DNA of 64,000 nucleotides from Atractiella rhizophila (GCA_021432655.1 MU271185.1:62001-126000), one strand, 5' to 3'. Positions 10,673 to 36,354 are shown, numbered from the stretch's first letter. Translations and numbers: made by a program. The notes: a model not told the origin generated them from the sequence alone.

Positions 10673-11339
10673 AGCTGTCAGTGTGTGCAAGAACATTTTT
10701 CTTGAATTGTTCAACACAACGATTCAACAGTTTCTCGCTCCAAAAGCTCTGCCGTACCGACTCTCCTATCAGCCAGCTACGAACCTCCACCCTTCCACAA
10801 GTCTGCAGGTCCCACCCTTCGATTTCGATTTCATCATCACCTCCCAAGAGTACCATGTTTCAACTAGCACGCGAACAACGTCAAGTTCGCTGTACTTTCA
10901 TCCTCCATAATTGAAATATCCCAGCAGTACTTGAATTCTTCCTCTCAGGCCATGCCGCCTGCCACCTCCTGGAATGAATAATCTACGACTGCTAGGTTCT
11001 AACGCTCCCCAAGGTGTCTAACTCCTTCAACCAATCCTACCTACCATCCAAGGGCTTGCCAGACGCGGATTTATTTTTGCTGAAAGATAATAGCTCTATG
11101 ACGTTGAATCAATGAGGATTTAAACGGGGCTCGAGTCTTCAATGAATGAATAAAGTTCCATGCACCACTGGTTAATTATGATACTTGCTTATTTCAGTTT
11201 TTTAGCCCGTACCGCGAAGAACGTCGAGCTTTATGTGCAGGTTTCGTATTGCTAACATCAAGGCAATTCACATTGCAAGAGTATTAATACGGAAAAGAAA
11301 GGACTGAGGACGGTGCGTCTTGCGTTGCAAGAGTAAGCG

Positions 11340-11655
11340 CGATGCGCAGATATAATGCCAGATTGCCAAATGAAAACGAAGACAGAACCAGTGACTGAAG
11401 AAATAATGAGTTGAAGTAAAAGCAACCTGTTGCAAAACACCAGCAGATAACATTGTAAGAAACGGAGCAGGCATTCGATACTCCGTGAAAGTAAAGACCC
11501 TAGAAGAGAAAGAGTGTGTCAGGCGCCGATCGAATTATATGCCAGATTGAAAATGGAAACAGAACCAGCAGCGGATGAAACGATGAGATCAAATAAAAGA
11601 AACCTGCTGTAAAACATTCAGGAGGTAAGACATAAGAAACGGAGCAGGCATTGAT
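11340..11655. repeat. Diverged direct repeat, copies spaced ~180 bp apart, downstream of gene A1
   Basis: The blocks atgccagattg, acagaacca, aacctg and taagaaacggagcaggcatt occur in the same order at ~11355-11476 and ~11539-11652. Confidence 0.75.
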
Positions 11656-11749
11656 GATCGTGCGGTTTGATAGACAACAAGTCGGAGAAGGCAAAATATT
11701 TGAAGGGCTCGGCATGCTTTGTCTTGCTTCCCACACATGTTATCCGTTC

Positions 11750-12100
11750 AACCGTTATTGAAAGGACGTCCAACTTCTGGATCCTGTATCATGATCGGAG
11801 TTCAGTTGGCAGTGGTCTCTGAGGTAGCTAGATACTTGCCATCAGAGAGTGTGAACATTGAAGAAGCGGACGGGACCTACGGTTGCTGTGGGCAGTCTCA
11901 TTCATTACTGCTTGAAATGCCATGGCAAGTGGACTTTCTGGAATGTAGATGAGAGACTGCCGAAGGGCTTGAGCTACTTCGTCTGGAGAGAGCCGAGAAA
12001 GCTGAATGGCTGCACTGATGTCTCGATCTGTCGATAACCCTTCACCTATGAGTGACATAACCGTCGTGTAGGATGGCGTCGATGGATCCTGATGAGACAT
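11750..12100 (-). CDS. Orphan small protein A1 (cassette 1)
   Basis: MSHQDPSTPSY...SPLAMAFQAVMNETAHSN, then a phase-1 GTAGGT intron at the same position as in A2 and A3. The last exon may be frameshifted. Confidence 0.55.
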
Positions 12101-13369
12101 GCTTTAGGTTCAGCGAGGTGAACTTCTATCAAGAAATGGTTAGCTCTCTTAACGAAGTTCACAATTTTTACTAAGTTCTTGCCAGCACCAACGGGAGGTT
12201 AAACTGTGGTGGGGCGGATAGCTTTTTTTTGAAAAGGAGACAATCGTATATATCGTAAAGGTGGTCAGGCGAAGTAGGCGTGACCGAAGGTGAAGCACTG
12301 CTGGGTTAAGAATGTGGGTGGAAGTTGAATAAATGATACCAATGCTGCGAATTAAGGGAGCCGAGAAGTTTTGGAAAGTTCTTTTTACGAGTGGATTGGT
12401 TTTATGGACATGGTGAGGACGAGGAGGACGTCATTGACGCGAGTCGTGTCTCACAAGTCGCACGCTTGTTTGTACGTTTGTACATAACGACCTCTGCGTT
12501 CGACTCAGACGTTGAATACGAGTAAATAAGTAAATACGTCCTAGACATCCGTACCAAGGTGCACGACGCTGGAGTACTTGATTATTCTTACTGGCAGTGC
12601 TAAACCTGTCTGTCTGTACCATTACAGTATACAGTACTGGCTGGCCAGTCAGTCTTCTCTCTCAAATCGCGATGTAGCACTGAGAATAACAGATTAGGTA
12701 ATACCGCAAACAAATGATGAATATTGCGCTGAATGCCAGCTGTTCCTAATAAACTTTGACAAGTGACTCTTGGGTGACTTTTCAGTTTGACAGCTTACAG
12801 TAACTTTGAGGTAACAAATCTCCAAAACTGTGCAGGTTCTAATTGACGAAGCTACAACCTTTCAACGCTATAAGTGTCAAAGCAACGCGGAGGTATGAAG
12901 GAACGTCCAGTGAGTAAAACTTTTTTATTAAGCGCGCATTTTGATAGGTAATAATCAAGCCAGCATGAAATGGAGGACATAAATGTCGTCTTGCTTCATA
13001 ACTAGAGAAAGGAAACTGAATGGTCTCGAAATTGAATGAGAAGAAACAGAGCCATCTGAGAGGGGAGAAACAGACCGAGACAAGTATAGCAAGAGGAGAC
13101 GCAGGGCAGCCCAAAGATGGAGCATAGATGACAACGAAACACGAAACCAACACATGAACGAATGTCGGAAGTGCGGAGTCTCAGTTGAATATCACATACT
13201 ACATTGAAGACCCTTGAGAGTTCGAAGGAAGACTAGGAGAAAAGTGATAATAGTTAGTCCTGGAATTCACGGTACTGTTGAGCCTCGACGCAATTTTAAC
13301 GTTTTTTGTGGGCATGTTCGAAGTTTTACTGTATCAAAGCCAGTCCAGTCGATTCTACACTACCGTGAT

Positions 13370-14114
13370 TCAGGCATGGTAGAGCTGTTCAACTCCTTCG
13401 ATACAAGTGTAAATACTAGAGAAGGTGACAACATTATGAGCGACATCACCACTGTTCCTCTCTGCTAGTGCCTCATAGAATGCCGTCCCCAAAGCATCCA
13501 AGGCTTGCGCTGATGGACCTCCAGGATCAGGGGAGGTGGTGTATTCGAACACATCAACTCCGCCGTCGAGAACCTGGCGACGATGCTGGCAAGCGTTTGA
13601 GCTGACCCCGAACCGAGTATCGAGTATCTGCCTCAAATTTTGAAATGCTTCCGCTTACGAGGCACAATCTCCATGTCAGACAAACTTAGACCTCTTAGGA
13701 CTTGAAGTTTTCTAGACGCCTGCATGAGATATGTGATATGTTAGGGGCTGCGGGCTTATTGCGGCGATGGGTTCCTTAAAAACGTCTAGAGGCTGTGCTG
13801 TGAACGGAACCGAATGAAAGGAGATTGTGAACGAGAAGAACGAAACAGTGATCAATTGATAGAGGTCCCTCGATGTTACGTCTAAGACGCGTAGGACGAA
13901 TTGAGCAAGAGCTGAAAATTCCCCACGTTCCACAAATTTTCTGTAAGCTGTGGGTCTCGGACAGCACGTCTGCAATGATCAGGTTTAGAACGAAATCTTG
14001 CGTACATCGCGGTTGCACGAGGCTCCTTTTCTTGTTGAAAAATCTGGAATTACATAACGCTGCGCCAGTCTTCCACTCTGAGTACATTGGCATGTCGTGA
14101 GGTGAGAGGGACAT
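13370..14114 (-). CDS. Orphan protein B1 (cassette 1)
   Basis: Core DPGGPSAQALDALGTAFYEALAERN, last exon GVEQLYHA*, upstream segment QFVLRVLDV. Homologous to segments at 17.3-18.0 kb and 27.9-28.7 kb. The 5' end is uncertain. Confidence 0.5.
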
Positions 14115-14201
14115 AAAAGCCGCGAAGGTCTAATCCATCCCACATTGGGGCAACATTATCATCATCACTCTCGACAGTTACTTCATCAGCATCTTCCCGT
14201 G

Positions 14202-14801
14202 ATGCTCCCCCAGCAACCCATAAGAAGGAGATTAATGTCTAGCGGAAAATTGGTAAGTTCCTCTGCTCTCCTCCAATGAGACCTAACGCGAGCGTAGTTT
14301 GTCGACAAAGTCAAAGAAACGTTTTGGGTGAATGGCTTCAGCGCTTTAGGCAAGAAACAGCAACGACTAAAGGAGTCTATTGACGGGACGAGCCATGGGC
14401 ATTCATTCATGTGTAATCCTGATAGCATCTTCGTTGGACGATCGCTGTCAGATTCCACTCTTTTCACCTCATCTGAAAGCCCTCGCCCTTCTCCAACAAT
14501 CTCAGCCAGAGGGGTGCTTCCCCCATCAACCAGCAGTCTGATTTCGAGTTCTCCGCTCACCGCTGCGAAAAGAGAGGCGGACGATGGGATCGCCGATAGC
14601 GAAACCCCGGTGGCGCATAATCTGCGAGTCGATAGCCTGGGAATTTATGTCGAAATCGAGCACAGAGACCACTTTTTTACGTGGGACCAGTTTGAACAAT
14701 TTTTGCTGGACGAAAGAAATACGGCGCACCTTCCAGCCGACGATGTTGTACGTCGCACCGCTGACATTCTGCGAGGTGATTCTCTCCTCCCCACATTGTA
14801 A
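14202..14801 (+). CDS. Orphan protein C1 (cassette 1), 2 exons
   Basis: Exon 1 MLPQQPIRRRLMSSGKL|GTAAGT. Exon 2 FVDKVKETFW...ETPVAHNLRVDSLGIYVEIEHRDHFFTWDQFEQFLLDERNTAHLPADDVVRRTADILRG. Confidence 0.7.
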
Positions 14802-15319
14802 TATCGCTGATGAAAGAAAAAGAGAACAAGAAGGTTTAACACCAACAATGTGTTACAAAATCCACGATGTTACTTGATATCCCAAGACTATCCAAGATTC
14901 ACGCTGTAACTTCTGGCTGACTCTCGGCCCTTGTTGTTTCCTTTCATATTCAAGCGCCCCCCTGGGCGTTGTAACTAGAGCGAATTTGTTCTATGCGTGT
15001 TCATCCGCAAACACAGGGGTCGGAGGGAAAGTCTTAACCGGATCTCAACGTTATAGAAGTATCAAATGCCATGTCCAAAAACTATACAAAAAACGTTGAG
15101 ATGGGTGGACAGGTGCCTCAGTAACAGATCAAGGGCTTATCGAACTGCTTTTGCTGCCGCTGAGCCCACTCTGAGATCTCGTCTGCCCGCGTAAGAGACA
15201 GCAACGAGCTCTTCCTTCCCACCTCACTCAATCACAAAGAACAATTGGATTCTTTTTCTGTTTCTAACCACCTTTGAGTTTATCATACTGTTTATGACTT
15301 GTCGACGGACGGAGAAGAC

Positions 15320-15520
15320 GAGTTGACTGTGATTGTGTGGTCATCGGCCCTACTCAGCATCACTCTTTGCTCTTTCACAGCCTGCACAGTGGACTGGTTA
15401 TTCCAGACTTTCCATTAGAACGGTAATACATTATTTCTCCATATATCCGGAAGATAGCAGAGAGTACCAGCGAAAGTCTGTCAACTCTCCAATGCTCCGA
15501 CGCAGATAAGTTTCAAAGCA
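15320..15520 (-). pseudogene. Remnant of the 3' end of PLP1/TXNDC9 (cassette 1)
   Basis: gtgattgtgtggtcatcggccctactcagcatcact aligns with gtgattgtgcggtcatagatcccattcgtcgtcact at ~32133-32168. It translates KSDAE*GR* versus the intact DSDDEWDL*. Confidence 0.55.
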
Positions 15521-15848
15521 GCTTAGGGAGGCTGCCATCGGTTGCAACGTCCGTACGTCGATTTTGCAACTTGCCTTGATGAACGTTGCTCAGAGCACTT
15601 CAGGCTCCGTTAATCATTATCGCGGGAGGATTTATTCAGTCGCTGAAGCGCTTGAACGGCGTTATCGAGCATTGGAATGAGGTTTTTGTGATACTCACCA
15701 ATGGCGGCTTTATAATTTGCCTTAAAATCATTATGACGATGTCGTCAATGTGCAGGTACTATTGCAGGCTGTTGCACATACAGTTTTCGGGAAAGTGTGG
15801 ATCGACTATCGAGTACGATGAATGAAACATTCCCCATCAGCACAGCAT

Positions 15849-16214
15849 TCAAAAGTCGGTTCTATCTTGGTTCGTGTGATCGAGGTTCAGGGCAGGATTT
15901 GGCTCCTGATCTGTTGCTGTTGAGTTAGCTGGTTCGTCAAAATCATTTAAACAGTGTGCAAGCTTCCAAGATGGCGAGAAAGACATACGATAGCTCTGAG
16001 CGGTCCTGTAGGTCACTTCGTGAATGGCAGCGGCAATTGAGCTTCCAGCAGGGGCACGGTGAAGCGCCTCAGTCAGTAATTCCCAAGGAATAGCCCTGAT
16101 TAGTCGGGTGATGCTTCCATCTATCCCACTCAGCATTTCCTCTGGAATAGGGTCATTTGCTAGTGAAAAGAGAGGCCTGTGGATTAACGTCGGAGTATTC
16201 TGATCTTGACACAT
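15849..16214 (-). CDS. Orphan small protein A2 (cassette 2)
   Basis: MCQDQNTPTL...SSIAAAIHEVTYRTAQSY, a phase-1 GTATGT intron, then last exon PNSTATDQEPNPALNLDHTNQDRTDF*. Confidence 0.6.
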   Translation of the reverse strand: MCQDQNTPTLIHRPLFSLANDPIPEEMLSGIDGSITRLIRAIPWELLTEALHRAPAGSSIAAAIHEVTYRTAQSYRMSFSPSWKLAHCLNDFDEPANSTATDQEPNPALNLDHTNQDRTDF

Positions 16215-17261
16215 TTCTACGTTCCGAGACGGGACACTTCGCTTTACGAACGGTAAAGGTCAGATACTGAGTTGATGACAGAGATTAAACTGCGAAAATC
16301 GGTCGGGGGGAGTCTTCGAGAACCTACGGTGGGGTATTGATTTCTAAAGGTCGTGAGTCCTGCCTAGTTGAATTTGAGTGTTGAGTGGAGTTGCGACTTT
16401 GATCCAAATTATTCATTTTTTAAAGGGTAAGGTCTCAATGTGTCACCTCACGATCAGGCTCGTCTTGCGTTTGTGCGTACCTGCGACCTGTTCAACGACG
16501 GCTTTGAGAACGACCCTATCAAACTTCAATGGAAACTTGCACCATCTTGACACGCTTTGGCGCGGGAATACTTGCTGAGGACTGTTTCCTCATCAACAAC
16601 CAGGCGAGGCGGAGCCATTACCTTCGAAATTACGGCAACTTAGGTTGAAAGGCTCTTCCCAAAACATGTGCACAAGAGTGCAGTGTAGTCCTCCGTGGGA
16701 CCATTCATCATCAAAGCCAAGTTTTTTTCTTTTTTGGTCAGCATTCCAGCTCCAACCGTGAGACGTCAAGTATCACAAACGAATTAGTGCTTACTGCAAA
16801 TTCTTAACCATAAGTGATTATTGCCACAAAGTTCATCTGACATGAAACGGTAATATGTTCGGGTCAAAAATTGGAGGATACTGAATGTCTTCTTGTTCTG
16901 CAGAGAGAAACCAAACCGAAGGTTTCAAGATCGAATGAGAGGACACGCACACACACAGAGCCATCCGAGAGAAATGAGACACGCCGAAACTATTGTGAAG
17001 AGTCAGGAAAGAGAGCAGCCGAAGACGCATGGACGCAGTAATGAGTGACGGTTGAACGGCAGCGGGGTGACAGTTGAATGTCGGAGGGTTGAGCGTCGGA
17101 ACGAAAGAGACAAACAGACTAGTGGAGAAATGGTACAGATGATCGTTAACCCTAGAATCGATGGTAAAAGATCGAACTCACTTGTTTTTTGAGATTTATT
17201 CACAAGATTATTCAGATTTTTTTGATCTTTTATCAAGGAAGTATTGTCTTCATTTTGATGT

Positions 17262-17990
17262 TTCAAGGATGCCCTCCTGACCAAGGGTAAGCGATGGGGC
17301 AGTCAAGGCAAAGCAGCGAACATACCATCGTCCCTTTCAGTAAGAACCCTGTTAAATGCCCTCCCTAAAGCGCTCATGGCTTCCGCAGAAAGACCTCCAG
17401 CATCGGACGCAGTATTAGAAGCGGCGTATGTGAATATCCTGCTCAAGTCCTCCCTTGAGAAGCTAGTGACTATGCCAGCCAGGCTTTGAGCTAGTTTGTA
17501 ACTTGAGACGTCCGTCCCCTGTTGTGTAAAACTTCACTTACGAACTGTCGTAGACAGATTGCTAGTGTTCGCGTTACGCTCGGAGAAAATTCGCCTTCGA
17601 CCGCGACGTTGACGGCGAAGGTTTCTATGATTAGCTCGAGACGCTGGCATGTTTAGGTAACTGTTGACGGCGACTGGTGAATGCTGAGCGCCGAGCACTG
17701 GACTGCGATTGAAACGTGCACACGGAGTTTCAGACTGACGCAGGGGGTACGAGGACAGCAGGACGGTCTAGAGAACCCTCGTTGGTTTAGTTACGTCTGG
17801 TTTTTACCGCAAGGTGATGGAAGTAGGAGCAACTGCAAGCTTCAGGCTCCGGATATGGGCATTACCAAGGCTTGATGATGTTTATACTTTATAAGGAACA
17901 AGAAGAACGAATGGAACGTTGATCGAGGTTCCTTCACACGTCCAGAACGAGTTGAACGAATTGTCGTTCCGCATTTTCGTACGTTCGTTC
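17262..17990 (-). CDS. Orphan protein B2 (cassette 2), possibly damaged
   Basis: Manual translation of ~17325-17518 gives LAGIVTSFSREDLSRIFTYAASNTASDAGGLSAEAMSALGRAFNRVLTERDD|GTATGT. Upstream, QFVQLVLDV is followed by TGA (~17934). Confidence 0.5.
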
Positions 17991-18207
17991 GTGCGTCTCG
18001 TCCCACCTGTGCTACAGTACCAATTGAATCAGTCAGGGCTAAAGTGATTCGGACATTCGGAAGGAGACGAGGAATGAGACGAGGAATGAGACGTCTTCTA
18101 CGTCCGTTTTCGCATACTTAAAACTCCTGCACCATTACCCGAAATCTCTCAAGAAACTACTTCTCAATATCACATTATCACATCTAGGAAGAGAACTGTG
18201 GAAGAAA

Positions 18208-18766
18208 ATGCCAGATGTCAGACCGTGGTACATCCAGCGAGTCCACCAACCATTGAAAAGTGCCATTTTTTTCGGTGGGAAAATATTGGTGTGTTTTCCC
18301 CATCCGCTCTAGCACGCTGATGAGAATGCAGGTACTCGTGCCTTACGCTAAAGTCAAAGAAACGGTGAAGGACATCGCGCCCAGAGGGAGGAAGCAAAGC
18401 CAAACAAAGAATTCGGGAGAGGCGAGTGATGGATATCCGATCACTGCTACGGCTGCCTCCACGTCAGTTTCTAACGCCTACAACGCGACCGACAGCAGCT
18501 CCTTACCCGAGTCTGAAATTAACGTCGACGTCAGCAATCATCCCCCTGCCAGCGATACTCCAGTTGCACGCAATCTGCGTGTTGACGAACGGGGGATTTA
18601 TGTTGATATCGAGGGCCGAGAGCACTTTTTTACTTGGGATCAGTTCGAACAATTTTTGCTTGATCCAAGGAATACAGAGCATCTCCCTGCGGACGACGTT
18701 GTCCGTCGCACCGCCGATATTCTGCGAGGTAAATCTGCTCTCCCTCTTGATAGGACTGTTGGCTGA
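18208..18766 (+). CDS. Orphan protein C2 (cassette 2), 2 exons
   Basis: Exon 1 MPDVRPWYIQRVHQPLKSAIFFGGKIL|GTGTGT. Exon 2 VLVPYAKVKE...DTPVARNLRVDERGIYVDIEGREHFFTWDQFEQFLLDPRNTEHLPADDVVRRTADILRG. Confidence 0.75.
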
Positions 18767-19599
18767 TGTATGGAGCAGAAAATAAGAAAGCCAAGGCGTG
18801 AGCAAAGAAAGTTTGTCTATCGGCAAAGCGCTACACTACTGCCCCAGCTCCCTAAGTACCATATGTGTTCTGCGACTTTCTTATCGCAGAAGATTGTCAT
18901 GCTCCTGTGTACTTTCCATACCTCAGATGATCCACTGAAGTATGCATGGTCCTCATGGGATTCTAGAACCCGAGTTTTGTTCGTCGTTAACGATATTACA
19001 GTAAGTGTGACGCATGAGACAACCCTTCGTTATTTCTGGATATTATGTCAGAGTATTTTAAACAGCATTCTTCTAATAGATATGCGACGACCTCGTAATA
19101 TGAGAGTAAGAAGAAACAAGAAGAGAAATAGATGATGGGGTCAACAAGAATAGTGGGAGTGACGAACGCCGCATCTACAGGTATCGACCACTACGACGAG
19201 CAGTTTGCGATTCATGGAATGGCAGCTGTCTAGAATAAGAGTAAGAATACGTTTCGAGTGCTGAGCTGCAGCACCCTAAAGTAGAGGATGTTGCAACGAA
19301 GCACTCTACGATCAAGGCGACAGATCTGGGAACCATCAGGTGATATCGAATTGACGGTTCTCATCTCCCTGACTTGAACGTAGCGTAGGAAATAAGTAGT
19401 GTCCACCTACTACCATGAAAGCCCTCAACCTCAGCAGCACACCCCACTACACCATTTCGACCTCCTGTCAGGTAACTGCACTGCGTGTCGACCGTTGAGA
19501 AAGTGAGTTGACAAGAGAGTTAACTAGTTAGTCAACGAAACCATTCAGGATAATTATCGCTTTTCCTTATATCCTTCCTCAACCTTGACCTCTCCATTT

Positions 19600-20560
19600 G
19601 TGAGGCAGTCGTCCAGACACCAGGAGACTCCTATACATCGAGGGGGGATGCAAGAACTGAGGGAGAGGGCAGAGAGAAGGAAAGCCGTACCAACCTCTGC
19701 CCAACCTCGAACCTAGAGCTTCGGTCGTAAAGTTATGTTCCCAGGCAATCCCCTCTAACCCCAAGATTCTGCTCCGAAGTTATTCTCAGAGTCCACCATA
19801 TTTACTTCGTGAAAGGGGTAACTGAACAACATACTTATCCTTTGGCACTCCATCGATGAAGGTCGTGACGCATGGCGGCACTTCGATAAAGAGTTTTGTG
19901 ACAAGGAAAGGGGTATGCAGGACGTTGATTTTGAGAAACAGAGTGCGGGCTTGCTTTTGAGCTAGTTTCTGGTCCTGCCTTTTAATAGCTGAGCAACTGA
20001 GCATACGTAGACAAAATGAGGCGTACTCGTAGTGCATATCCACAACATTACACCGCCAAAGATCGTCTTGACAAAAGTGTACGACGCAGAGAGGCGCTTT
20101 TCCTCCTTCCGTCACTCCCGTCAGCAACGTTTACAGACCAGCGTAGGCGAGGAGCAAATTACACAGATCGTTCCTTCTCCTGTTTCTCCTCCTTCATCTC
20201 AAAACGCCGGATGACTCGATGACTCCTCTCCTTCACAGCTTCAGCTTCATCCGTCTCAATCCACCCATGCTTTAAACCATTACATAACCCAATCATCAGA
20301 CGTCTGGATACGAAGTTCGAGGGAATAGTACCCACATCTCGATTCATTGCTCCCGAGTCCACGCTCGCATTCTCCCACCATCATGTGCATGCATATCATA
20401 TGCTTCTTCATCTATTTCCTTTTCCTGCTCTTCTGGAGCCCATGGTCGTCCTTGAGTTGCGGCCGTGAGCATTACTTGGTCGTTCGACATGCTTCGCGCG
20501 CAAGCAATCAGCTATGGTATCTCATTTAAAGTGTGATTTCCAACCATATAGGTAGTCATA
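19600..20560 (-). pseudogene. Degenerate copy of phosducin-like PLP1/TXNDC9 (cassette 2)
   Basis: KAPLCVVHFCQDDLWRCNVVDMH, KLAQKQARTLFLKINVLHTPFLVTKL and NFTTEALGSRL are collinear with the gene at 32145-33123. There are frameshifts near the N-terminus and the first donor site is lost. Confidence 0.75.
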
Positions 20561-20699
20561 TCTCTCTCAAGTTCTTACACATTCTCGAGTTTTGGACAGG
20601 CAGCCTGAACCTGGTCATGTCTCGTCATCCTTATCCTTATATATAAAGCACGACGGGTTTTGACCATGACTCACACATGTACTTTTGAGCCCTTATATC

Positions 20700-20970
20700 A
20701 CCGCCCACAACAGTCCTTTCAAAATTCTGAGCATACAGCAAGAATACGCGTGTCGGCGCCCTTCGAACCGTATACAGCAAAGCCCATTTGAAAGACGAAA
20801 AAAAAATTGTTTACCCCAACTGACTCATGTGACTTCTTGGTCCACAACAACACCCTCAAAATTCTGAGCATACCACCAGAATACGCGTATCAGCGCCTTT
20901 CCAACCATATACAATAAAGCTTATTTAAAGGACAAAAAATAGTTGTTTTCCATGACTGAGTCAAGTGACC
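20700..20970. repeat. Two tandem ~135-bp subterminal repeats in the Helitron left end (third copy at ~24325-24458)
   Basis: ccacaaca...aattctgag...agaatacgcgt..c.gcgcc.tt..aacc.t...ctga.tca.gtgac recurs at ~20706, ~20842 and ~24329. Confidence 0.85.
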
Positions 20971-21039
20971 GACTTCGGCACTTTGACAAAAATTTCCTTA
21001 CCTACTCAAATAAGGCAACAAGGTACAGAGTTTGCGCGA

Positions 21040-21104
21040 TGGTGTAGTTGGTGTATGGTTGGGTAGTTGAGTCTTGACTGTAGTGTTGGTGCGGGTTCGA
21101 TTCT
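21040..21104 (+). promoter_or_regulatory. tRNA-type RNA polymerase III internal promoter (A box + B box) inside the Helitron
   Basis: TGGTGTAGTTGG at 21040-21051 fits the A-box consensus. GGTTCGATTCT at 21094-21104 fits the B-box consensus. Spacing is tRNA-like. Confidence 0.5.
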
Positions 21105-21434
21105 CAGTCATGTCACATTTTGTCACTGCCAAATCCTATTGTGTTTGCAAACTGCGTGCCCGCAATTTCTAATTCCTACAGAGCTTTCTGAGACTTCTCA
21201 TCTCATGTCATGTGCCAAAAACTGTTCTTTGCCAACTAGGAGGGAAAGTGAGCAAGCATTCATGCAAGTGAAACAGTTTCTTTCACCATGAATATGCTTC
21301 CTAACAATCTACCATAGTATCCCTCAGCCTGTTAGCATCAAATCAAATCAAGCAAAAAAAGCATAGGTGTGTGGACTCTGGCTTATATATTCTTCACTCA
21401 TATCATTTTGTTATGTGCAGCAAGCTACACTCTC

Positions 21435-23999
21435 ATGCCACGTGCAATTCAGAGAAATCAAACAAGAAATCGAGAGCGTCGATCCAAACGGCATCAATGT
21501 CTGCAGCAGGAGGCACCACTATACCAGGGTCGACCTGTAAGAGAGAGGCAACGCCCTGCACATTTTAATCCTACTCCACCTACTCCATCTCAACATGAGA
21601 CAAGATCAACTAGGGCTCCACGTCAGTGTCAGCAGCACTGTCGAAGCTCTTCACTATCTATATCTTCACGACCAGCTCGACGACATTGGAGACAGCATTC
21701 ACCCTCCGCTAAGGAGTACAGTGAAGAAGAAACCCGATCATACCCATCCTCTCCTGATCCTGATGGTGTGGACAGTGATGAGGATAGGGCATTAATCCCA
21801 TTGTTGCGAGGCGAAATAAGGCAACATCACTATCCTGCATTCAACTACTCACCTGATATGGATCTTGAGGCACACCACCTCTCTACTTGGGGATTACTTT
21901 GTACACATTGCAAAGCCTTTGATTGGATGGAAGAGAAGATCGTTAACAGCCCACAACGAAATCCAAAGTTTACATTGTGCTTCTCCACAGCAAGGTGCTG
22001 CTACCTGTTCCTCTGCCTCCACTTGAAGAGCTACGAAAGCTTTTTACACATGACAATACAACAGGTAAGTATTTCTATTCAATTTTTTTGCATATACATA
22101 TCTGAGAGGAACAATCATTATAGAGTCAATGGCATTTCGAGAGCATATCAGGATATTCAATAATGCTTTTGCATTTACATCCTTAGGCGTCCGCCACGTA
22201 TCAATTCCTGGACATGGTCCCTACTCCTTCAAAATTCAGGGAGAGCTCTGTCACCTTATTGGCACTCTTTTACCACAACAAGAAGGGTGTGAAACATTTG
22301 CACAGGTCTACATTACAGATTCAGCTGTACAGACTGAACAAAGAGTTGGCAACACTTCAATATCACTGAATCGTAGGACGCTTGAAGACCTTCAGGCTAT
22401 ACTCTTCCATGTCAACCCATATCCCAGGATCTACAAATTTGTAAAAGAAAGAATGGAACAGGATCCCACTACAACACTACATCTTCGCACAGTCGCCCCA
22501 CGAGATAGGGACCCAAGACGCTACAACATTCCTGTAGCCAGTGAAGTTGCTGTAGTGAGGTAGGAGATGGTAACAGAGAAGAATATGGAGTGGCCAGAGA
22601 TATTGTCATCCAGCTCAGGGCAACCAGGACCGGTAGCAACTTACAGCATGTGAATGAGCTCAACTCAAATTATCTTCCACTTTGTTTTCCTCTTCTGTTT
22701 CCATATGGGGACCAAGGATGGCATCCGCAGATTCCGTATCGAGACCTGCCTGCAGATCTTCCTCCTCGCGAGCGAGAGCACTTCAATGATGACGGCATGC
22801 AAGTTGGTAATTCTGGGGTTCGACAATGTGTCAAGCCAAATGGAGTTCTATTCTTACATGTCGCATCAACGAAATGATATATTCTCACTCCCTCTCTACG
22901 GTGGTCGGCTACTGCAAGAAATGGTAGTCGATGCTTATGCTCAAATTGAGGCGAATCGACTCCGCTATCTGCTGTTCAATCAAGTCTATTCTTCGAGCCG
23001 AGTGTATCAAGGTCTTACGGATGCCCTTGCAGAAGGCTATTCTTCAGAAGATATCGGGAGGCGGACTATATTACCATCAAGTTTCACTGGCAGTCCATGT
23101 TCAATGAATCAGCTGTTCCAGGATGCAATGACTATAGTTGGTGCCAAAGGACCCCCAAATATCTTTACAACCTTCACTTGCAACCCACACTGGGCGGAGA
23201 TCACGGAAGCCGTCCTACCAGGACAAAAAACCAGAGGATCGACCAGATTTGGTTTCAAGGGTTTTTCGACTGAAGGCTCTGGAGTACATCAAGGATTTAG
23301 TGGTACGACAGATCTTTGAAAGGGTTATCAGATATGTCTGGGTCATTGAATGTCAGAAGATAGGTCTACCACATGCCCACATCATGTGGATGGCATCAAC
23401 GATCACTTGATTCAGTGGTTCGAATCCATAGGAGATCGGGTATATTATAGTACAGATCAAATTATAGATGACGAGGGAGATCTCAGAAATCGCTTCTCTG
23501 TCGAGTACCTGAATACCCTGGAGATCTCTGTATTCCCTCCGCATTGTTTACACCTCAAGACCGGTGTACCCATCATTCTTCTGCGAAATCTCAATCCATC
23601 TGCTGGCCTGTGCAACGGCACGCGGCTCATTGTCACCAGCTTCTCCGACGAGTCATCGAAGCAACCATCATTACAGGTACACACAGTGGCGAATCAGTTC
23701 TCATTCCTTGAATTGGCATTGACAGTGCAGTATCAAACCAGCTTCCTTTTCAATTCCGGTGCTTTTAATTCCCTGTGCGCTTAGCGTTTGCCTTAACTCT
23801 GAATAAAGTGCAAGGACAATCTGTTGGACATGTGGGTTTGTACTTAGAGTCTTCTCCTTTCTCTCATGGGCAGCTTTATGTTGGTCTTTCACGGGTTTCA
23901 AACGCAAACAATTTACGAGTATTGGTCAAAACAAAGCAAGGAGAAGAAAACAAGCAAACAGATAATGTAGTTTACAATGAAGTGTTACTCAATCACTGA
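21435..23999 (+). pseudogene. Helitron RepHel (HUH endonuclease + PIF1 helicase), disrupted
   Basis: Motifs are spread over several frames (ORFs 21369-22163, 22129-22563, 22590-22877, 22654-23319, 23138-23410, 23350-23784, 23775-23999). The HUH motif is joined almost directly to the helicase C-terminus at ~23390. Confidence 0.85.
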
Positions 24000-24257
24000 T
24001 CATCTCTCAGCATGTTCCTAACAGTATAGTCAAAAGCTGAAGTGGTTCTCCGAGGTACGAGGAGACCACTCAGCTTTCATTGTTTTTTGAAGACAGTAGA
24101 GTACATATGGTGAGTCTGTGCTCGCCGAAGGCGAGGCCCCACGCAGTGGCTGCCAGAGGCAAGAGCTCCACGCAGTGGCTGCCGGAGGCTGGGGTCCAAG
24201 GGGCGAAGCCCCTGGCGGGGGGGGGATGCCATAGGGACGAGGGCACTGACACACTTG

Positions 24258-24605
24258 TCCTTATATAAAAAGCACGACGGGTTTTGACCATGACTCACAC
24301 ATGTACTTTTGAGCCCTTATATCACCGCCCACAACAACCCTTTCAGAATTCTGAGTAGACCGCCAGAATACGCGTGTCGGCGCCTTTCGAACCGTGTGCA
24401 GCAAAGACTATTTGAAACACGAAAAAAAATGTTTTCACGACTGAGTCAGGTGACTTCTCCGCGAGAGATGAGGGCCACTCAGCTTGTGCCAGATAAACAT
24501 CCGATCGGAACGTCGGAAGCGAACAGCTTAGTTGCAGTTGCAGACTCTCACACCACCTCTCCCAACTGCACAATACGAGGGACTAGAAGCAGCCGCCCTG
24601 GCTAG
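24258..24605 (+). mobile_element. Short non-autonomous Helitron-like unit (second copy of the left end plus the CTAG terminus)
   Basis: TCCTTATATAAAAAGCACGACGGGTTTTGACCATGACTCACACATGTAC... is near-identical to 20634 onward for ~80 bp and clearly homologous for ~200 bp. It ends at CTAG|T. Confidence 0.75.
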
Positions 24606-24749
24606 TGCCATAAAATAACATACCGCTACCATGTATGGCGAGACGTCATGAGTTCGACTCCAAAGACGGTGAACAGTTTCCCTGGCTAGCCCAAACTTTG
24701 GATAGAGGAGGGTGGAGTGGTTTCTCGTGGGTCGTCAGGGGCTGAGAGG

Positions 24750-25960: not shown

Positions 25961-26498
25961 ATTGCGATAAACAGAAGAAAGCAATAGTCATTATCTAATC
26001 AGAGTGACCAGAACGATGTAGAGAACACTTTCTCATCATGCGGCGTAAGCGCGACGGACATGGCTGGACCGCATCAGTAATAGTAATCCAAAATATCTGA
26101 CACTGAAGCTGTTTATTAATCCTCCACTTGGAGAGTCTGAAGCTTAATCGCAATACTTTTAATACACAATCGTGACGGTGACAGTGCAGTAGATACAAAT
26201 TTCGTGAAAACATCGATACGGTAATGCGTCTCGTTTTGCAAGCAAACTTGCGCAGATCTGCTGAATTTCAGACACAACAGCGCATCAAATGATGCTGTGG
26301 ATTGTGAAACAAAATTTAAAAGCAACCTGTTTCCAAATTCAAAGAGGTTTACAGACAAAACTACTCATTTGGTCGGTCTGATCTCGTTAGAAATGAGGTT
26401 GGAAAGAAAGGACCTCGATTAAGGTGAGGAGAGGGTCATGGCTCGACATTTGATCTCTCTGTCCATTCATATAGTCAACCTTGGTCTTCTGTGCGAAT

Positions 26499-26860
26499 TT
26501 AAAGGATGTAGAGATAGTACCAACATTGGTAAGGCGTGTCTGGATCGTTCGGCTGATCACTGTGTGGTTTTGCGGTGTGAGTAGGAGGAAGAGGATCATT
26601 GGCTGGCTCCCGGCATTTTTAGTCAGTATGCAAGGAGGTGAGAAAGACTCACAATTTTTGTTGGCGTCCTCGATAGTTAATGCCCGTACGGCAGTGGCGA
26701 TTGGCCTTCCAGCGGCGTATGTGAGGGTAAGCTGAAGGATCTGAGCTAGAGGAAGTGACCCCATGATGGCATTGTCATCATAGCCTCTGAGTCTGAATTG
26801 ACCGTTGATCGGTGTAGGGAGCGTTCTGTAGGCTGGCCTAGTATCGTGACCTTGACCCAT
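26499..26860 (-). CDS. Orphan small protein A3 (cassette 3)
   Basis: MGQGHDTRPAY...LTLTYAAGRPIATAVRALTIEDANKN, then a phase-1 GTGAGT intron at the position homologous to A1/A2. Confidence 0.5.
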
Positions 26861-27940
26861 TCTGTCTGTTGAATGTCCTGAACCTTCAGCATGTCAGTGC
26901 CTGGGATAAAGACGATCATAAACGTCCTACGAAAATGAAATGGGAGATACGAGCGAGAGATTGGTATTTCTGAGATAATGAGATCTTTAAAAAATACGCG
27001 GATTGAAACGTATGTGAAGTTTGTGAACGATAGTGAATAGCTAACTGATGGACAAAGGTGTGAGTGAACGTTTCAAAAGCTGGATTTACTACTAATCCAA
27101 GCCAAAAAAAAAACTAATTCTGAAATAGCAGGGTCAGGATGCAACGTGCGGTTGATGGGAAGTCGTGAATTCGTGGGATTAAGTACATAAGAAGGGGTTT
27201 ACCTTGAGGACGTGAGTTACGTCTCATGCAATGTTCGTGTGTATGTCGCAGCTTACAAGTTGAACGAGAGCTTGTGGGTAAAGAATACGCAACCCATGTC
27301 CATGAATGAACGAACGGACCACTGAAGCCCGGCATGATGATTTGACGCACCTAATGTACGCAACAGCGCATTACTAACTTTGTGACAATGAGAACTATTT
27401 GTCTGCGACATCGTGGCATGTCACTAGTGACTAGGTGCACGAAATGACTGCAGTGTCTTCGAAGGAAAAACTGGGCAACTCACAACCAACTGAAACAGAT
27501 CAGATAAGCCGATGTATCGAAATCTGTCTCAGAGTTGACCAATTCACAGGAGTAAAGAGGCTAGCTTTAAGACTGTCTGTACTTTGCCTGCTTTCCACAA
27601 ATGCCACAAACTAATAAATTTGTGCTGTAATTACTATGTACGGTTTTGTTCATGGAACGAGAGGGAACTACTGTGACGATATAAAACAAAGGTAACCCAA
27701 GGTAACAATAAACTCTGAGGAGAACTGGCTGATGATTGAAGATTGAACGTAATTGATTAATTGACTAGTTGACGAACTAAATTTGTGTTGAGGGGGCGTC
27801 GGAACCAAGTGCAAAACGGACTGTGGAGAGGTCATTAATTTTGAAAGGGCCAGGAAGCAATTAAACTCACATCTTTTTGACATGAGGTACATATTTTTCG
27901 ATTTTTGTGTCAATTTTTGCCAAGAAAATAGTACGTTGGT

Positions 27941-28676
27941 TTAAGCTTCAGGGACAAGATGTTCAATGTCTTGACAAACTTATCAGCGCCTAAGCAAATG
28001 AACCTGAACCACTCACCATACTAGTTCCTTTCCGCATTAGCTTGATTGAATGCCGCTCCCAAATCGCTCATCGCCTGTGCTGAAGGACCCTCAGGATTGG
28101 AGGAGGCGGCAAATACGAGGCACCTAATCAACTCTCCAGTCGATAGGGCAGTGACTGGCCGATTTCGACGGTGAGAAATCCCCATCAGAATAGCTTGAAC
28201 GACTTACAAGACGCGGCGGAGTGATTGCTTGCGTTTACGTTACGCTCAGATAACGCTTGAGGTCCGCGAACTCGACGTCGCCTACTCTGGCTTCTGCCCT
28301 GACGTCTGCTGTTCTGCATGGTTATCCGCCAAACGTGCTTGGGAAAATGTGGACACGTAATTTCAGGCTATTTGAAGAACTCGGAGTGTGTCTCGACGCG
28401 AGAGGGCTTATATAGCAGAAAACAAGAAGTACGAAGGTGTTCGACATATACGTCAAAGACGAGCCGACTTTGGTGGTTCCACATATGAGTGGCCTTTGTG
28501 CGACTCGTTCGCAACGTGAGAAGCTGATCACATACTCCCATATTCCGGACCGGACGGTGGACACCATCAACGTTTTTTGCGAGTCCAATGATCTGTCTGT
28601 CGTTGCAGATTGGTTCATTTGATTGGGGTGGGATCAGCAATGGCATAGTTGCAAGTGGGTTGGCGGAATCAGGCAA
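27941..28676 (-). CDS. Orphan protein B3 (cassette 3), possibly truncated by a nonsense codon
   Basis: Manual translation of ~28022-28165 gives VTALSTGELIRCLVFAASSNPEGPSAQAMSDLGAAFNQANAERN*Y|GTGAGT. Last exon DIEHLVPEA* (compare B1 GVEQLYHA*). Upstream RLVFDV. Confidence 0.5.
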
Positions 28677-30593
28677 TATTTAGAAAGCGGCAAGCGTTCG
28701 GGACATACGATTGTTCTCAGCTGCCCAGTTCACCATCTCTTGACGAACATCCGGCTGGAGCAAGCTGAAACGCGTCTGCTCATAGTTTCATAGGAATGGC
28801 CCAGGTTCCTCGCCAATTGCGCCACTGGTAAAGAGAGAACCAAAGAGAACGGTCTGGTGGCTCGGTCTGCAAAGGCATCGATATTGGCATATTCATGTTT
28901 CTTGTCAAGGCGATAAATTCAAGTAGAGGTCAGTATCCGAAATTATGAACATAAGCATCGTCTGGTTAAGTATTCTGCGGAAGCGGATTTGCAAGATACC
29001 TCAGTTGATACTTTTGATTCCTGCAAGTTGAGAGCCAAAGCTGTAGAAATGGATGGAGCGTATCCGTCACCAGACAAATTCATAATTTTAACGCCATCAG
29101 ACCTTTCTGATTGCGGAAAGCCATGAGAACAAGGTATTTATCCAAGATTGGATGAGGAAGAAGTGAGGCTCGTCTGGGTTTGTGCATACCCGCCGCCTCG
29201 TTATCAATGAATAAGAGTAGGTTTGAGTTGTGGATACCGTAATCCTCGTCCTTTTGGGAACGGAAAATTGAAACTTGACCACTTTCACGCGCTGCACGCA
29301 CTCCATTCTCCATGGAATGTAAGGTACTCATTTAGTCCCTTCGAAACTACAATGCGATCAGGACGGACTGAGGGATTGAAACGAAGTTTTTCAATGAGAA
29401 ATTCCAGGTCCCTCCACGATTTCCAGCCGTCTGGCATACTTGAAGCATGGACATTCCACCATCTTAATTATTTATAATCGGGGCTAAGTACTGCTGTGCG
29501 GTGTGCAGGAGTTGAGGATGCACAATGACATTGGGAGCAAACCTTATAAATCTAAAACTCTTGACGTAACATATTTCTCCGGAAGTGAATATTGTTCGCA
29601 TGCGACATGGACCTTTTGGGGCAAGAGCTGAATGTCTTCTGTATCCATCCGATAGAGGGTAGGCGGTGTGAAAACGATAGTGACGAGAGAGAGCATTCGA
29701 ATGATGAACCGAAGGCAGGATGCAGTCCGAGTGACATCGAACGTACGTTGGATATTGGATATTGGACCTGGAACCCCAGTTGAATGAACAGCGAAGAAGA
29801 AATATGAACGAGGGAATGAGATGGCAACAGACTGGTGTTGGCCGTGGAAAGGACTTGTTCCGCAAATTCGGCTTTCTTTTAGAAATTTCCTCAAAGATAT
29901 TGTCCGTTGAACACAGTCCATGCCCCTTGAACCATACACTGACTCACGTAAGGGTTCGGGTCGCAAAACACTTTTTTTGACCTCTCCAGAATAAAAATCT
30001 TCGCGGATTCAGAAAGCTCAAGCATATGAAATAAGATGGTAATAATCATTTCATTTTAACGTGCTACTGAGGGAGGTATGAACGGTGCGTTTTCTGACTC
30101 ATGCCAAGAATGGATGGGCTTTTAGACGTAAGGAAAGCTTTTGACGACGTGAAAGAGTAGCACATATCATAGTTTGTTTCTGTAGCCGGAGCCCCTAAAG
30201 CGCTTCGTTGCGCCAGATGCTGTGGACGGGTTACTTACATCCCTCTTAGGGATAAAACTCATGGTTTTCCGGACTAAAGAAATTGGCTGCATTGCTAGAT
30301 TGGGAGGTCATGTTCAGGACGTTGATGCGATTCGAAAGATAGTACGTACGGCCCCTCGTTTTCAGAAAGCAAGCTCAAAGATAAGAACTAGGAAACTGAT
30401 ATACAAGAAGCACGAATTCGAGTAATGAATGATGATGTTCTCCGAGACGTGATCAATGTTGTTGAACGTCTTTCTAATATGTGCTGCTTTCGCAATCACG
30501 TGAATTTGTGTGTAATATGGGTTCCGAACCAAACGACGCTCTGAGACGTGGTAGACGGCAAACAAGGGGTAGAAGGTCGCGAACAGACCAAAG

Positions 30594-31379
30594 ATGCATT
30601 CAGTTCCGCAGTATAAATTCAGCCGATACCCATCCTGGTGTCCATCATCCCCTGCACACGCCGCTGTATTCATCCACATCCTATCTGGGATTCAACCAGA
30701 GCCTTTCAAGAAAGCGCCGTATAACGATGCCTCTCCACATACCTCGTCGGTACCGCATCCAAGTACCCTTGATAAACTCTGTCACCTTTACAGTAACAAC
30801 ACTTGTGCGTCCTCCGTCTTCCCTTCAACCAGCTAATGGCAGGTGCAGGTGGTCCAACCTTACATTAAAGTGAAAGAAGCAGAGTGGCTGAAAGGCATTG
30901 CGACAATTGTGATGAAGCGTAAAGGAGGAGCAGGCACGAGCGAGAGTGCCTCCGTTATTGAGTCTAGGCACAAAGTCTTTGCCACCTCATGGGCAGCAGA
31001 TTCCTATCTCTTCACTTCATCAGACTGTTCTCGTCCTTCTCCGAAAATCTCAACCGGGACGGTTCCTTGCAACACGACCACCGAAAAGTTCATGTCATCC
31101 TGTCCAACGCCATCTGAATGCGATACCAGTCATAGCGATGTCGACCATAACGGCAACAAGAGCGAAACTCCCATTGCGCGCAATCTCCGAGTTGATAACT
31201 CGGGCATTTACGTCGACGTCGAGAGCCGAGAGCATTTTTTTACTTGGGCCCAGTTCGAGCAGTTTTTGCTGGACGAAAACAATACTGCGCATCTCCCCTT
31301 GGATGATGTTGTCCGTCGCACCGCCGACATTCTGCGAGGTGAATCTTTCTCTCTCCGTCATTTTGGGACAGTTGGCTGA
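30594..31379 (+). CDS. Orphan protein C3 (cassette 3), 2 exons
   Basis: Exon 1 ...IQPEPFKK...LDKL. Exon 2 VVQPYIKVKE...ETPIARNLRVDNSGIYVDVESREHFFTWAQFEQFLLDENNTAHLPLDDVVRRTADILRG. The donor position is uncertain. Confidence 0.7.
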
Positions 31380-32144
31380 TGCAAGAAGTAGAGAACAAAA
31401 AGGCTCAGGCATGATTGAAGAAATTGTTCCCACTGTTGTAACGTGGACAAGATATATCCGTACTGTAAGAATTGTATACCTTCCTTTCTGGTCTATGCAG
31501 AATCCCTATGCTCCTATATTACTTCCATACGCTAGAACGCGGTTTGAAGAATGGTTCTTATCGGACTCTTTCAAGACCAAATCTGTTTCTTTATCATATG
31601 CAGCGCGGGAATGCGCGTGGGCTCCTATCTCTCGAAACTAAAATTGATATCTTTTCCGAATTGACTGCTAAAATGGAGAAAAGTGAGGTCCGAGTGATAT
31701 GCTATGGGACTTAAAGAAACATGAGGCTGGTCGACCCAGCAGCAAGAACGCGGGAGATCGACAATCGCCGCATCCATTTGTCATGGACGCCAAGAGCAGC
31801 TTGCACTCAATGGAACTGGTAGTTGTACAATTAAGTATACGGGGTACCTTGCAGCAAAGCCATTAGCAGAAGAGATGGAGTGCGGAAACAAAATAACCAG
31901 GATCAAGATGTCCGGGATGAGAATCTTCGAGCCAACGAAGTGGCATCGAAATCGGCTCCAAGATTCTCATCTCCGCGACCAGAATGTGGCATAGGAGACA
32001 GGCAGTGAGGCACTGACTTCGCTCAATCACGCACACCCAATGGCATGATTTTTCTGCTTCTAACCTCCTCTCAATGCACTTGCGCTTGATTCCTTTCAAC
32101 GGATGGAGCAGACGAGTAGACGAAAAGCTTGAGTGATTGTGCGG

Positions 32145-33123
32145 TCATAGATCCCATTCGTCGTCACTGTCTGGGTTCTTCACATCCTTCTTCAATGTAG
32201 ACCTCTCTACTTGCAAAACACCTGACCATCATCCACGTTTATCAGATCCTCGTGATGGCGGAATGAAGATGTAGGTAGAGCGGAAGAAAGGAAGTCGCAC
32301 CAGCCTCTGCCAACCTCCACTCCAAGGCCTCAGTAGTAAAATTGTCTCCGCCCGGCAATCCCTCAAAACCTACAATTCTGCAGCATTGTCAGCGTCCATT
32401 ATCAACGTCCACATTCATAGCACCGTGAGAAGGGAGCGGGAACGGCCTACCGATCCTTTGACACTCCATCGATGAAAATCATCACGCATGGAAGCACTTG
32501 AATGGAGAGTTTGGTGACAAGGAAGGGGGAATTCAGCACGTTGATTTTGAGGAACAGGGTACGGAAGTGTTTTTGAGCCAGTTTCTAGTCCACCTTTTCT
32601 GTTAGGAGGATTCATCATGGATAGGAAAGGAGTCCCACTTGGAGATGCATGTCCACGATTTTACACCGCTTAAAATCGTCGTGATAAAAGTGGACGACGC
32701 AAAGTGGCGCTTTTCTTCCTTCCATCGCTGTCGTCAGCCTTGTTCACACATCAATAGCGACGACGAAGGACGTACACAGATCGTTCCATCACCTCTTTCT
32801 CCTCTTTTATCTCGAGGTATTGCCCATGACTTCCCTCCTTCATCTCTCTTAGTCGCCCCATCCTTTAAATCATCGACACAATGATCAGTCGTCGTTAAAC
32901 GCGGTTGGAGATAAGAAACTCACTCTCGATTCATTGCTTCGAGACGACGTTCACGTTCTCCTGCCATATCATATGCGCCTTCATCTATTTCCCTCTCCAA
33001 CTCCTCGAGCAGCCCATCATCGTCCTCTTGAGTTGCTGCCGTGAGAATCGCTTGGTCCTTGGATATGCTTCGCGCACGATCGGCCACCGCATCAGTTGAA
33101 TGAGCGAACACCTACCTAGCCAT
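32145..33123 (-). CDS. PLP1: Phosducin-like thioredoxin-fold protein (Plp1/TXNDC9 type), multi-exon, apparently intact
   Basis: ATG at 33123. EDDDGLLEELERE...RERRLEAM; CVVHFYHDDFKRCKIVDMHLQ; KLAQKHFRTLFLKINVLNSPFLVTKLSIQVLPCV; GFEGLPGGDNFTTEALEWRL; ends DSDDEWDL*. Confidence 0.85.
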
Positions 33124-33297
33124 CTCTTTCTCCTCTCACTTCCTACGCAATGTGCTCACTTTCCTCGTCCTGGTCGCCCAACAATAAGAGTGTGTCCACT
33201 GCGTTCTTGTGAAAGTCAACATCCGGCCGGACTTTCCAGGGCATTCCGCTTCGTGTCACGCGTCTGTGTAAAACCATAAAACGACTCCCCGCGATCG

Positions 33298-36200: not shown

Positions 36201-36354
36201 GATGGTTTGACTCCTTTTGCAGTTCAAGAAAAAGCTTCCGAGGAAGATTTTCGTGCAGGACAATACATTCGTGAAAGATGACGAAGCAATCCTTAAGGAA
36301 TACGAGCTCTCGACTAAAGGTGCTATTCAAAGTTTTATCGAAAGGGATCTTTAA
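33298..36354 (+). CDS. DPP3: Dipeptidyl peptidase III (peptidase M49), copy 1, with an upstream in-frame N-terminal extension
   Basis: HELLGH (split by an intron at ~35355), EECRAE, GFIEDY, IPAGINIPNY, GFKNVSLGNV, HMQAR, SFIERDL*. ATGs at 33298 and 33433 are in frame. Confidence 0.93.

Follow-up and report, generated by a model that had tools for sequence, protein, structure and literature searches.

The Array and Its Three Units

The stretch of DNA analysed here (hereafter the window) is 64,000 nucleotides (nt) long and belongs to the genome of Atractiella rhizophila (GCA_021432655.1, MU271185.1:62001-126000; all positions are counted from its first nucleotide). It carries an array of three colinear units lying in one orientation, at ~11.3-15.5, 15.6-20.6 and 26.2-33.1 kb, each of which is made of three small genes, called A (− strand), B (− strand) and C (+ strand), followed by a PLP1-like gene (− strand):

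11250..15500: unit 1 (A1, B1, C1 and a PLP1 remnant), delimited by colinear blastn and tblastx matches to units 2 and 3
15600..20620: unit 2 (A2, B2, C2 and PLP1-2), delimited by colinear matches and by a cDNA-like contig of RNA run X9 that covers 15743-18661 with the introns removed
26200..33120: unit 3 (A3, B3, ~1.9 kb of extra DNA, C3 and PLP1-3), delimited by colinear matches

Comparing the window with itself reveals a weak but consistent likeness among these three stretches, and a self-comparison of 11-33 kb, i.e., the check proposed along with the original prediction for this locus, recovers the three colinear units. At E < 0.01, a sensitive blastn search yields five matches between units 1 and 2, six between units 1 and 3 and six between units 2 and 3, all of them same-strand and colinear, versus 0, 0 and 0 matches for the same pairs with a reversed subject, while tblastx gives colinear unit matches too. 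The statement that the same four elements occur in the same order and orientation at three places is borne out by these counts, and its coordinates were right. Each unit consists of four blocks that match those of the other units (blastn):

Block A: anchors at 11874 (unit 1), 15967 (unit 2) and 26631 (unit 3)
Block B: anchors at 13454 (unit 1), 17330 (unit 2) and 28024 (unit 3)
Block C: anchors at 14598 (unit 1), 18551 (unit 2) and 31161 (unit 3)
PLP1-like block: 15221-15383 (unit 1, a remnant), 19342-20499 (unit 2) and 31948-33075 (unit 3)

Since no alignment between units extends outside these blocks, the units must be old, and the synonymous divergence (dS) between unit copies is indeed ~1-2 (0.95-2.2 for C). 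Intron positions are nonetheless common to the copies: both C introns in all three annotated models, the donor of the B intron in three of three units and the A intron likewise (3/3). Old copies with common intron positions had been part of the original prediction, and both statements hold. The genes differ in how many copies remain intact, namely 3/3 for C, 3/3 for A (open reading frames, ORFs), 2/3 for B and 1/3 for PLP1.

Gene C and Its Family

The C2 frame finds its best homologues in six hypothetical A. rhizophila proteins, three of which map exactly onto the window as three-exon genes, while the other three are close paralogues, one located on a 123,509-nt contig and two on a 27,560-nt contig. 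The three copies of the window are as follows:

14202..14839, + strand: C1 (P0005), 181 amino acids (aa), introns 14253-14297 and 14776-14822, from exact protein mapping
18208..18801, + strand: C2 (P0001), 166 aa, introns 18289-18331 and 18729-18778, from exact protein mapping and RNA joints
30727..31414, + strand: C3 (P0004), 196 aa, introns 30805-30848 and 31339-31391, from exact protein mapping

Transcription was studied by mapping the RNA-derived contigs of four runs on a 20-kb stretch, with A1 and the 5' end of PLP1-3 lying outside of it. Such contigs cannot show strand, transcript starts or levels, and splice-aware ORF models were used only with RNA-supported introns. The first intron of C2 (GT..AG) is seen as a joint in three of the four runs and the second in all four, including two root metatranscriptomes. 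Moreover, one piece of an X9 contig (14297-14773) lies within 2 nt of both ends of C1 exon 2 (14298-14775), and another (30849-31336) starts at the first base of C3 exon 2 and stops 2 nt short of its end. C is therefore intact, annotated and spliced in 3/3 units.

The 65-residue C-terminal domain of C is clearly under strong purifying selection, with ratios of nonsynonymous to synonymous divergence (dN/dS) of 0.04, 0.13 and 0.10 among the window copies (dS 0.95-2.2), and no change is seen among the six C paralogues at 46 of the 60 positions 104-163. The N-terminal half (dN/dS 0.30-0.53 among the window copies) is divergent and disordered, and is modelled with low confidence.

A profile search against 1.84 billion representatives returned nine proteins at E <= 0.001, i.e., three from the close family, five remote matches to the domain only and a repetitive protein that we took as spurious, as it matches the N-terminal part only. 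Among the remote members, three, along with a fourth from the same cluster, belong to A. rhizophila and two are environmental sequences. The family thus amounts to at least ten members in A. rhizophila, found on contigs of seven sizes, plus the two environmental sequences. Eleven columns are invariant in the 12 aligned sequences, which share a ~50-residue module with invariant G, V, W, L, T, LP, D, TA and L. These profile matches and invariant columns make C a member of an undescribed small-domain family, almost confined to A. rhizophila so far. Pfam reports nothing above cut-offs for the C proteins and their remote relatives, all Atlas scores for the C domain are 0.86 (under the 0.9 bar), and scans of metagenomes with the C alignment and with a degenerate DNA pattern gave no matches. 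The domain is predicted to fold as three strands then three helices (beta3-alpha3), with a predicted local distance difference test (pLDDT) of 82-90 over residues 111-166. Fold searches with two C models retrieved no solved structure above noise (Foldseek best E 0.92 and 0.71; VIA best Z 3.2 and 2.8).

In a tree of all 12 sequences, midpoint-rooted for drawing only, C1 pairs with one copy of the 27,560-nt contig (99/97) and C3 is sister to that pair (83/86), while C2 pairs with the copy of the 123,509-nt contig (86/89). These pairings of C1 and C2 with copies from other contigs imply that the units were already divergent when blocks were duplicated to other loci.

Genes A and B

The two other small genes of the units show the following copies:

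11802..12100, − strand: A1, acidic ORF of 81 aa, predicted intron 11828-11880; start and intron position as in A2 and A3
15849..16214, − strand: A2, acidic ORF of 101 aa, intron 15929-15988 seen as a CT..AC joint in run X9
26499..26860, − strand: A3, ORF of 103 aa, predicted intron 26603-26652
13465..13725, − strand: B1, broken copy; start and intron 13602-13658 kept, arginine-rich part missing, 4-nt deletion near 13560
17263..17650, − strand: B2, basic ORF of 95 aa, net charge +7; intron 17491-17541 RNA-supported, intron 17277-17325 inferred
28021..28319, − strand: B3, basic ORF of 81 aa, net charge +6; predicted intron 28155-28207

A1 and A3 keep the start codon and intron position of A2, along with good splice signals and open frames, even at 25-28% protein identity between units (pN/pS 0.61-0.84). 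For A, dN/dS is 0.32 and 0.67 where computable, values that are unreliable because dS is saturated. The net charges of the three copies are −6, −7 and −1. The A2 ORF has no match among deposited proteins of 74-238 aa, and hence seems to be unannotated. A side result concerns the A3 region (26176-27062), on which contigs of runs X9 and X2 map with only ~90% likeness and with skips of 262 and 183 nt that lack intron ends; these contigs probably derive from an A3-like paralogous locus elsewhere in the genome.

B has a run of arginines near its start. The RNA support for the B2 intron 17491-17541 comes from a loose X1 contig end at 17490 that maps to 17542-17551, and the B2 ORF would be 98 aa long if its last intron were left unspliced. 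B3 has the start, the intron and the core motif of B2 (47% identity; dN/dS 0.30, under the same saturation of dS). In B1, the 4-nt deletion shifts the conserved motif out of frame, and this deletion and the missing arginine-rich part mean that the copy is probably dead. B and C are divergently transcribed from a common interval of ~550 nt.

Third codon positions differ most in every pair of copies, both for A (0.63-0.74 vs. 0.47-0.55) and for B (0.53 vs. 0.33-0.38). Pfam yielded nothing above cut-offs for the A and B exons. Kinship between A and B was also considered, and an hhalign comparison (E 0.0046, probability 7.6% over 31 columns) proved too weak to call them paralogues.

The A2 intron appears as a joint in one run and a junction of the B2 transcript (17119-17181) in two. 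A single X9 contig of 2,377 nt covers 15743-18661 with introns removed, running from A2 across a multi-intron spacer and B2 into C2, of which it contains the first half; the 439 nt that it lacks between 16267 and 18036 match the combined length of seven introns proposed there, which fits, without proving, that splicing. B and A may thus lie on one transcript, and polycistronic transcripts have been reported in basidiomycetes, as outlined in PMC4503453. A CT-rich block of the spacer region (16869-17023) is conserved with 12968-13114 at 64-74%; as its indels are not in threes, it is probably non-coding. No run gives contig depth over 27524-28190, where the second exon of B3 is located, or over 22188-23521, inside a Helitron described below, which is not evidence of silence, and the rest of B3 (28191-28319) falls in a bin with depth from run X6 only (0.23).

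The PLP1-Like Gene

The fourth gene of the units has decayed in two of its three copies, in agreement with the original prediction:

15221..15383, − strand: PLP1-1, 3' remnant only (~170 nt), 71% identity to 32016-32188
19342..20499, − strand: PLP1-2, transcribed pseudogene, spliced contigs with introns 20106-20162 and 20270-20335
31948..33111, − strand: PLP1-3, intact multi-exon gene of putative thioredoxin fold, open across exons, four introns in RNA contigs, start codon provisional

Compared to PLP1-3, which reads through, PLP1-2 has frame-breaking indels in three of six exon alignments (net +11, +1/+5 and net +1) and, at a fourth exon, an acceptor displaced by 4 nt, while PLP1-1 may never have been a full copy. 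Contig depth is 330-430 for PLP1-3 and ~20 for PLP1-2, figures that cannot rank expression. PLP1-3 is a putative Plp1/TXNDC9-like (phosducin-like) protein. A 44-residue exon of PLP1-3 gives weak thioredoxin matches, with E 0.0083 in PDB, E 0.15 for Pfam Thioredoxin (below cut-off) and an Atlas score of 0.88 (under 0.9).

Origin of the Array

This locus probably goes back to an old tandem segmental triplication, after which a lineage-specific cluster, in a region prone to duplication, went through ordinary birth-and-death evolution. The duplicated unit would be a 4-5 kb piece holding the three small lineage-specific genes and the Plp1/TXNDC9-like gene, and the units would have arisen through unequal crossing-over or replication slippage. 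Redundant PLP1 copies would then have decayed because one copy suffices, while the small genes would persist as members of expanding species-specific families. Birth-and-death of lineage-specific families after tandem segmental duplication is a general genomic process, and the decay of spare housekeeping-gene copies is expected after any segmental duplication.

A neighbour on the + strand points to the same tendency of the region. Directly after unit 3, within 33280-44159, an M49 peptidase gene (dipeptidyl-peptidase III type) is tandemly multiplied, with two full-looking copies (33280-36390 and 37657-40736, 75% alike) and a partial third one (41775-43127), and the stretch includes a young 2.4-kb tandem repeat (39371-41764 vs. 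41776-44159, 95.5%). The region therefore duplicates ordinary genes too, at several ages.

As to what the small genes do, the folded domain of C might be a docking module that binds the conserved helix of B, B might be a small basic protein, nuclear or nucleic-acid-associated, and A might be an acidic relative or counterpart issued from the transcription unit of B; taken together, this is a tentative guess, which we regard as rather doubtful. It draws on a predicted contact between the conserved exon of B and the C domain, for which the interface score ipSAE is 0.41 (median of three runs) vs. 0.02 for the best of three controls, with at least 91% of contacts agreeing between runs and a partner pLDDT of at least 70. 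The contact mark is reached by 51 of 78 solved complexes and by 2 of 108 mismatched pairs, and scores of 0.60 or under include only five of those 78 solved complexes and all four of the mismatches that passed (of 180). The prediction thus lends weak support to a B–C contact, and the notion that B and C act together is best treated as a lead, with the balance tilted against it.

Several points weigh against the reading of the array as a triplication followed by birth-and-death. Of the two other unit copies, the nearer one to C1 is C3 and not the adjacent C2, so that the history cannot have been a simple stepwise tandem duplication. The coding status of A and B rests on conserved starts, introns and open frames, the saturation of dS deprives both genes of reliable dN/dS values, no annotated A was found in the size range given above, and a profile of the B exon has no match among proteins of 166-2000 aa, a range outside which B itself (~80-95 aa) falls. 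The B–C score lies in the zone where, according to the calibration of the tool, wrong passes outnumber right ones except for pairings that were likely beforehand. Finally, a selfish or recognition system would likewise be expected to retain three linked, fast-evolving small genes.

The most serious competitor holds that C alone is a genuine coding gene, with A and B as chance ORFs in untranslated or non-coding spliced transcripts duplicated with C. It would account for the lack of database matches to A2 and B, for the 25-28% identity and the pN/pS of the A copies, for the X9 contig that runs through B2, the multi-intron spacer and A2, and for the broken B1. However, start, frame and intron position are conserved in 3/3 A copies, as are start and intron in 3/3 B copies, and frames of 81-103 codons have remained open although divergence is close to saturation; the core motif common to B2 and B3 and the excess of changes at third codon positions in every A and B pair also point to coding sequences, while the size range of B (52-166 aa) lies outside the 166-2000 aa of the search that failed to find it. 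We thus regard this alternative as unlikely.

What is new at this locus is an undescribed small-domain family and two small genes that seem to be unannotated, not a new kind of system. A literature search on the A. rhizophila genome, judged by titles and abstracts, turned up nothing on this locus, which offers a well-documented case of a fungal genome that grows species-specific small-gene families by local duplication and sheds spare housekeeping copies. It also bears on annotation: the deposited proteome lacks A, and perhaps B as well, PLP1-2 counts as a transcribed pseudogene, and Pfam has no entry for the C domain (50-65 residues).

Surroundings and the Mobile-Element Hypothesis

Between units 2 and 3 lies the remnant of a mobile element:

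20630..24458, + strand: dead Helitron insertion, bounded by 208-nt direct repeats at 20630-20837 and 24254-24458 (89% identical)

Its ORFs at 22654-23781 match Pfam Helitron_like_N (E 2.7e-30) and Pif1_2B (E 1.2e-23), and Pif1 2B/UvrD_C pieces are found along with Helitron_like_N on ORFs 22654-23996. The Rep-helicase lacks the ATPase part expected between the Rep and 2B domains. To judge by the contig depth, which is 215-500 at 20.85-21.5 kb, the element probably exists in many copies. A third, partial copy of the direct repeats is located at 20842-20969, and only six other letters stand between 20789 and 24433 in an X9 contig. Over the 191 six-frame ORFs of 11.2-33.5 kb, Pfam finds Helitron pieces and one sub-threshold phage match only.

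This neighbour raises the question of whether the cassette is transposon cargo, i.e., whether a Helitron or some other mobile element captured gene pieces including PLP1 and left the tandem units as rolling-circle by-products. The position of the remnant directly between two units, the close C paralogues on two other contigs and the truncated and broken PLP1 copies, which resemble captured gene fragments, would all suit such an origin. Against it, no transposase, Rep or integrase domain is found by Pfam inside any unit, the Rep and helicase pieces being confined to 22.6-24.0 kb between units. Because it sits between units and has its own direct repeats, the Helitron reads as a later insertion. 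Moreover, the units (dS 1-2) are far older than the repeat pair that flanks it and keep intact spliced genes. There are no inverted repeats of 40 nt or more in 9-36 kb, although no search was aimed at Helitron termini of the units. We therefore hold transposon cargo to be improbable, and prefer the tandem triplication.

Other features of the region were noted. At the left edge of unit 1, a stretch of 112-114 nt occurs twice, ~65 nt apart (11364-11475 and 11540-11652, 77% alike). Left of the array, an open frame of 539 aa on the + strand (8887-10503) belongs to no Pfam family, its leucine-rich-repeat matches being far under cut-offs. In unit 3, the ~1.9 kb of extra DNA between B3 and C3 (28400-30700) contains ORFs of 154-159 aa with no Pfam match; an inserted repeat is suggested by the contig depth of 42 over 29525-30191 and by the loose ends that two runs show at 30085 and 30117. 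Finally, an ORF of 131 aa on the − strand (25446-25981), located between the Helitron and unit 3 and without Pfam family, is overlain by two mismatch-free contigs (25489-25639 and 25831-25981) of run X1, a root metatranscriptome, and may be another orphan gene.

Toxin–Antidote and Recognition Systems

The original prediction went further than the layout of the array, as it read the trio as having the architecture of a toxin–antidote, meiotic-drive or allorecognition locus. On such a reading, one product would be harmful to cells without a linked partner that protects or matches. Some of the premises of the prediction stand. A, B and C are recognisable in all units insofar as C is intact and A open in the three of them and B2 and B3 are preserved, with the reservation that B1 is broken and that the A copies are so dissimilar. 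Likewise, it is broadly right that the trio, not PLP1, was retained, which does not single out a selfish or recognition system. The contigs with spliced C2, A2 and B2 transcripts speak against the possibility, raised at the same time, that the trio is not transcribed. As for dN/dS among copies, the usable values are those of C (0.04-0.13 for the domain, purifying), and none exceeds 1. The architecture itself found no positive evidence (neither a known family, nor a transmembrane-like segment, nor dN/dS > 1) beyond the weak predicted B–C contact.

The linked small genes have multiplied and are restricted to one lineage, and both A and the N-terminal half of C change fast. A is acidic while B is basic, B and C diverge from their common interval, a contact between them is predicted, and the trio survived in more copies than PLP1. 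Each of these features could be read in favour of a selfish cassette. However, searches of the ORFs, the C proteins and the A/B exons against Pfam gave no similarity of the trio to any known family, and no domain of known incompatibility systems, such as HET or NACHT, turned up among the 191 six-frame ORFs of 11.2-33.5 kb, the annotated C proteins and these exons. A 19-residue Kyte-Doolittle scan, which measures simple hydropathy only, found no hydrophobic segment above 1.30 in 11 proteins (six of the C family, three A and two B), unlike the multi-transmembrane wtf products as described in PMC10721834. The C domain is under strong purifying, not diversifying, selection, and, with B1 apparently dead while A1 and C1 persist, the trio does not survive as an obligate set. 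Root metatranscriptomes, not sexual stages only, contain spliced C2 and the B2-transcript junction, and an ordinary neighbour gene, the M49 peptidase, was multiplied as well. All in all, a selfish or allorecognition locus is very improbable.

We know of no toxin–antidote or nonself-recognition cassette of such kind characterised in basidiomycetes. The most elaborate version, a co-inherited module in which the B helix would dock on the C domain and the acidic A, issued from the transcription unit of B, would counteract B within a selfish or nonself-recognition cassette that multiplied itself both within loci and between them, appears just as far-fetched. If B and C did bind and the trio were a killer or recognition system, it would represent a multi-gene selfish cassette in an early-diverging basidiomycete.

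Comparison with Known Systems

Among known drivers, Spok products are large multi-domain proteins. The Spok spore-killer genes of Podospora, as presented in PMC6660238, resemble the present genes in forming a family at several chromosomal places in one fungus, and differ in being a single-gene system, while A, B and C are proteins of 81-196 aa without recognised domain. The wtf drivers of fission yeast, as far as PMC10721834 and PMC5478263 describe them, are likewise a multi-copy, species-restricted and fast-evolving family, with a proposed contact of two products. In wtf, a single gene with two transcription starts encodes both toxin and antidote, each of them a multi-transmembrane protein (account of PMC10721834), whereas the array has three separate genes without hydrophobic segments and no sequence similarity to wtf. 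According to these same descriptions (PMC10721834, PMC6660238), wtf and Spok are single-gene drivers, not three-gene cassettes.

Fungal Helitrons are matched by the Helitron_like_N and Pif1 2B/UvrD_C pieces of the remnant, which differs in being a broken insertion between units and not the frame of the cassette. The proposed likeness of PLP1-3 to Plp1/TXNDC9 proteins draws on its intact multi-exon structure and on the weak thioredoxin-fold signal of a single exon. For the C domain, PqqD-like recognition elements of ribosomally synthesized and post-translationally modified peptides (RiPPs), which bind peptides, have the same order of three strands then three helices; the N-terminal region of MbnC heads the VIA list and a RiPP recognition element domain is within the Foldseek list. 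C differs in having no sequence similarity to these elements, and the scores are at noise level (Z 2.8, with a root-mean-square deviation of 2.1 over 48 residues; E 2.5), so that the predicted likeness is a lead only.

Tandem duplication with birth-and-death evolution provides the closest parallel. The array departs from it in that the retained genes have no recognisable family, that three different small genes are kept together and that C1 groups with C3. It resembles it in its head-to-tail units of the same order and orientation, with old and unequal divergence, in its pseudogenised copies (PLP1-1, PLP1-2 and B1) vs. a C gene kept under purifying selection, and in the block copies on other contigs and the multiplied M49 neighbour.

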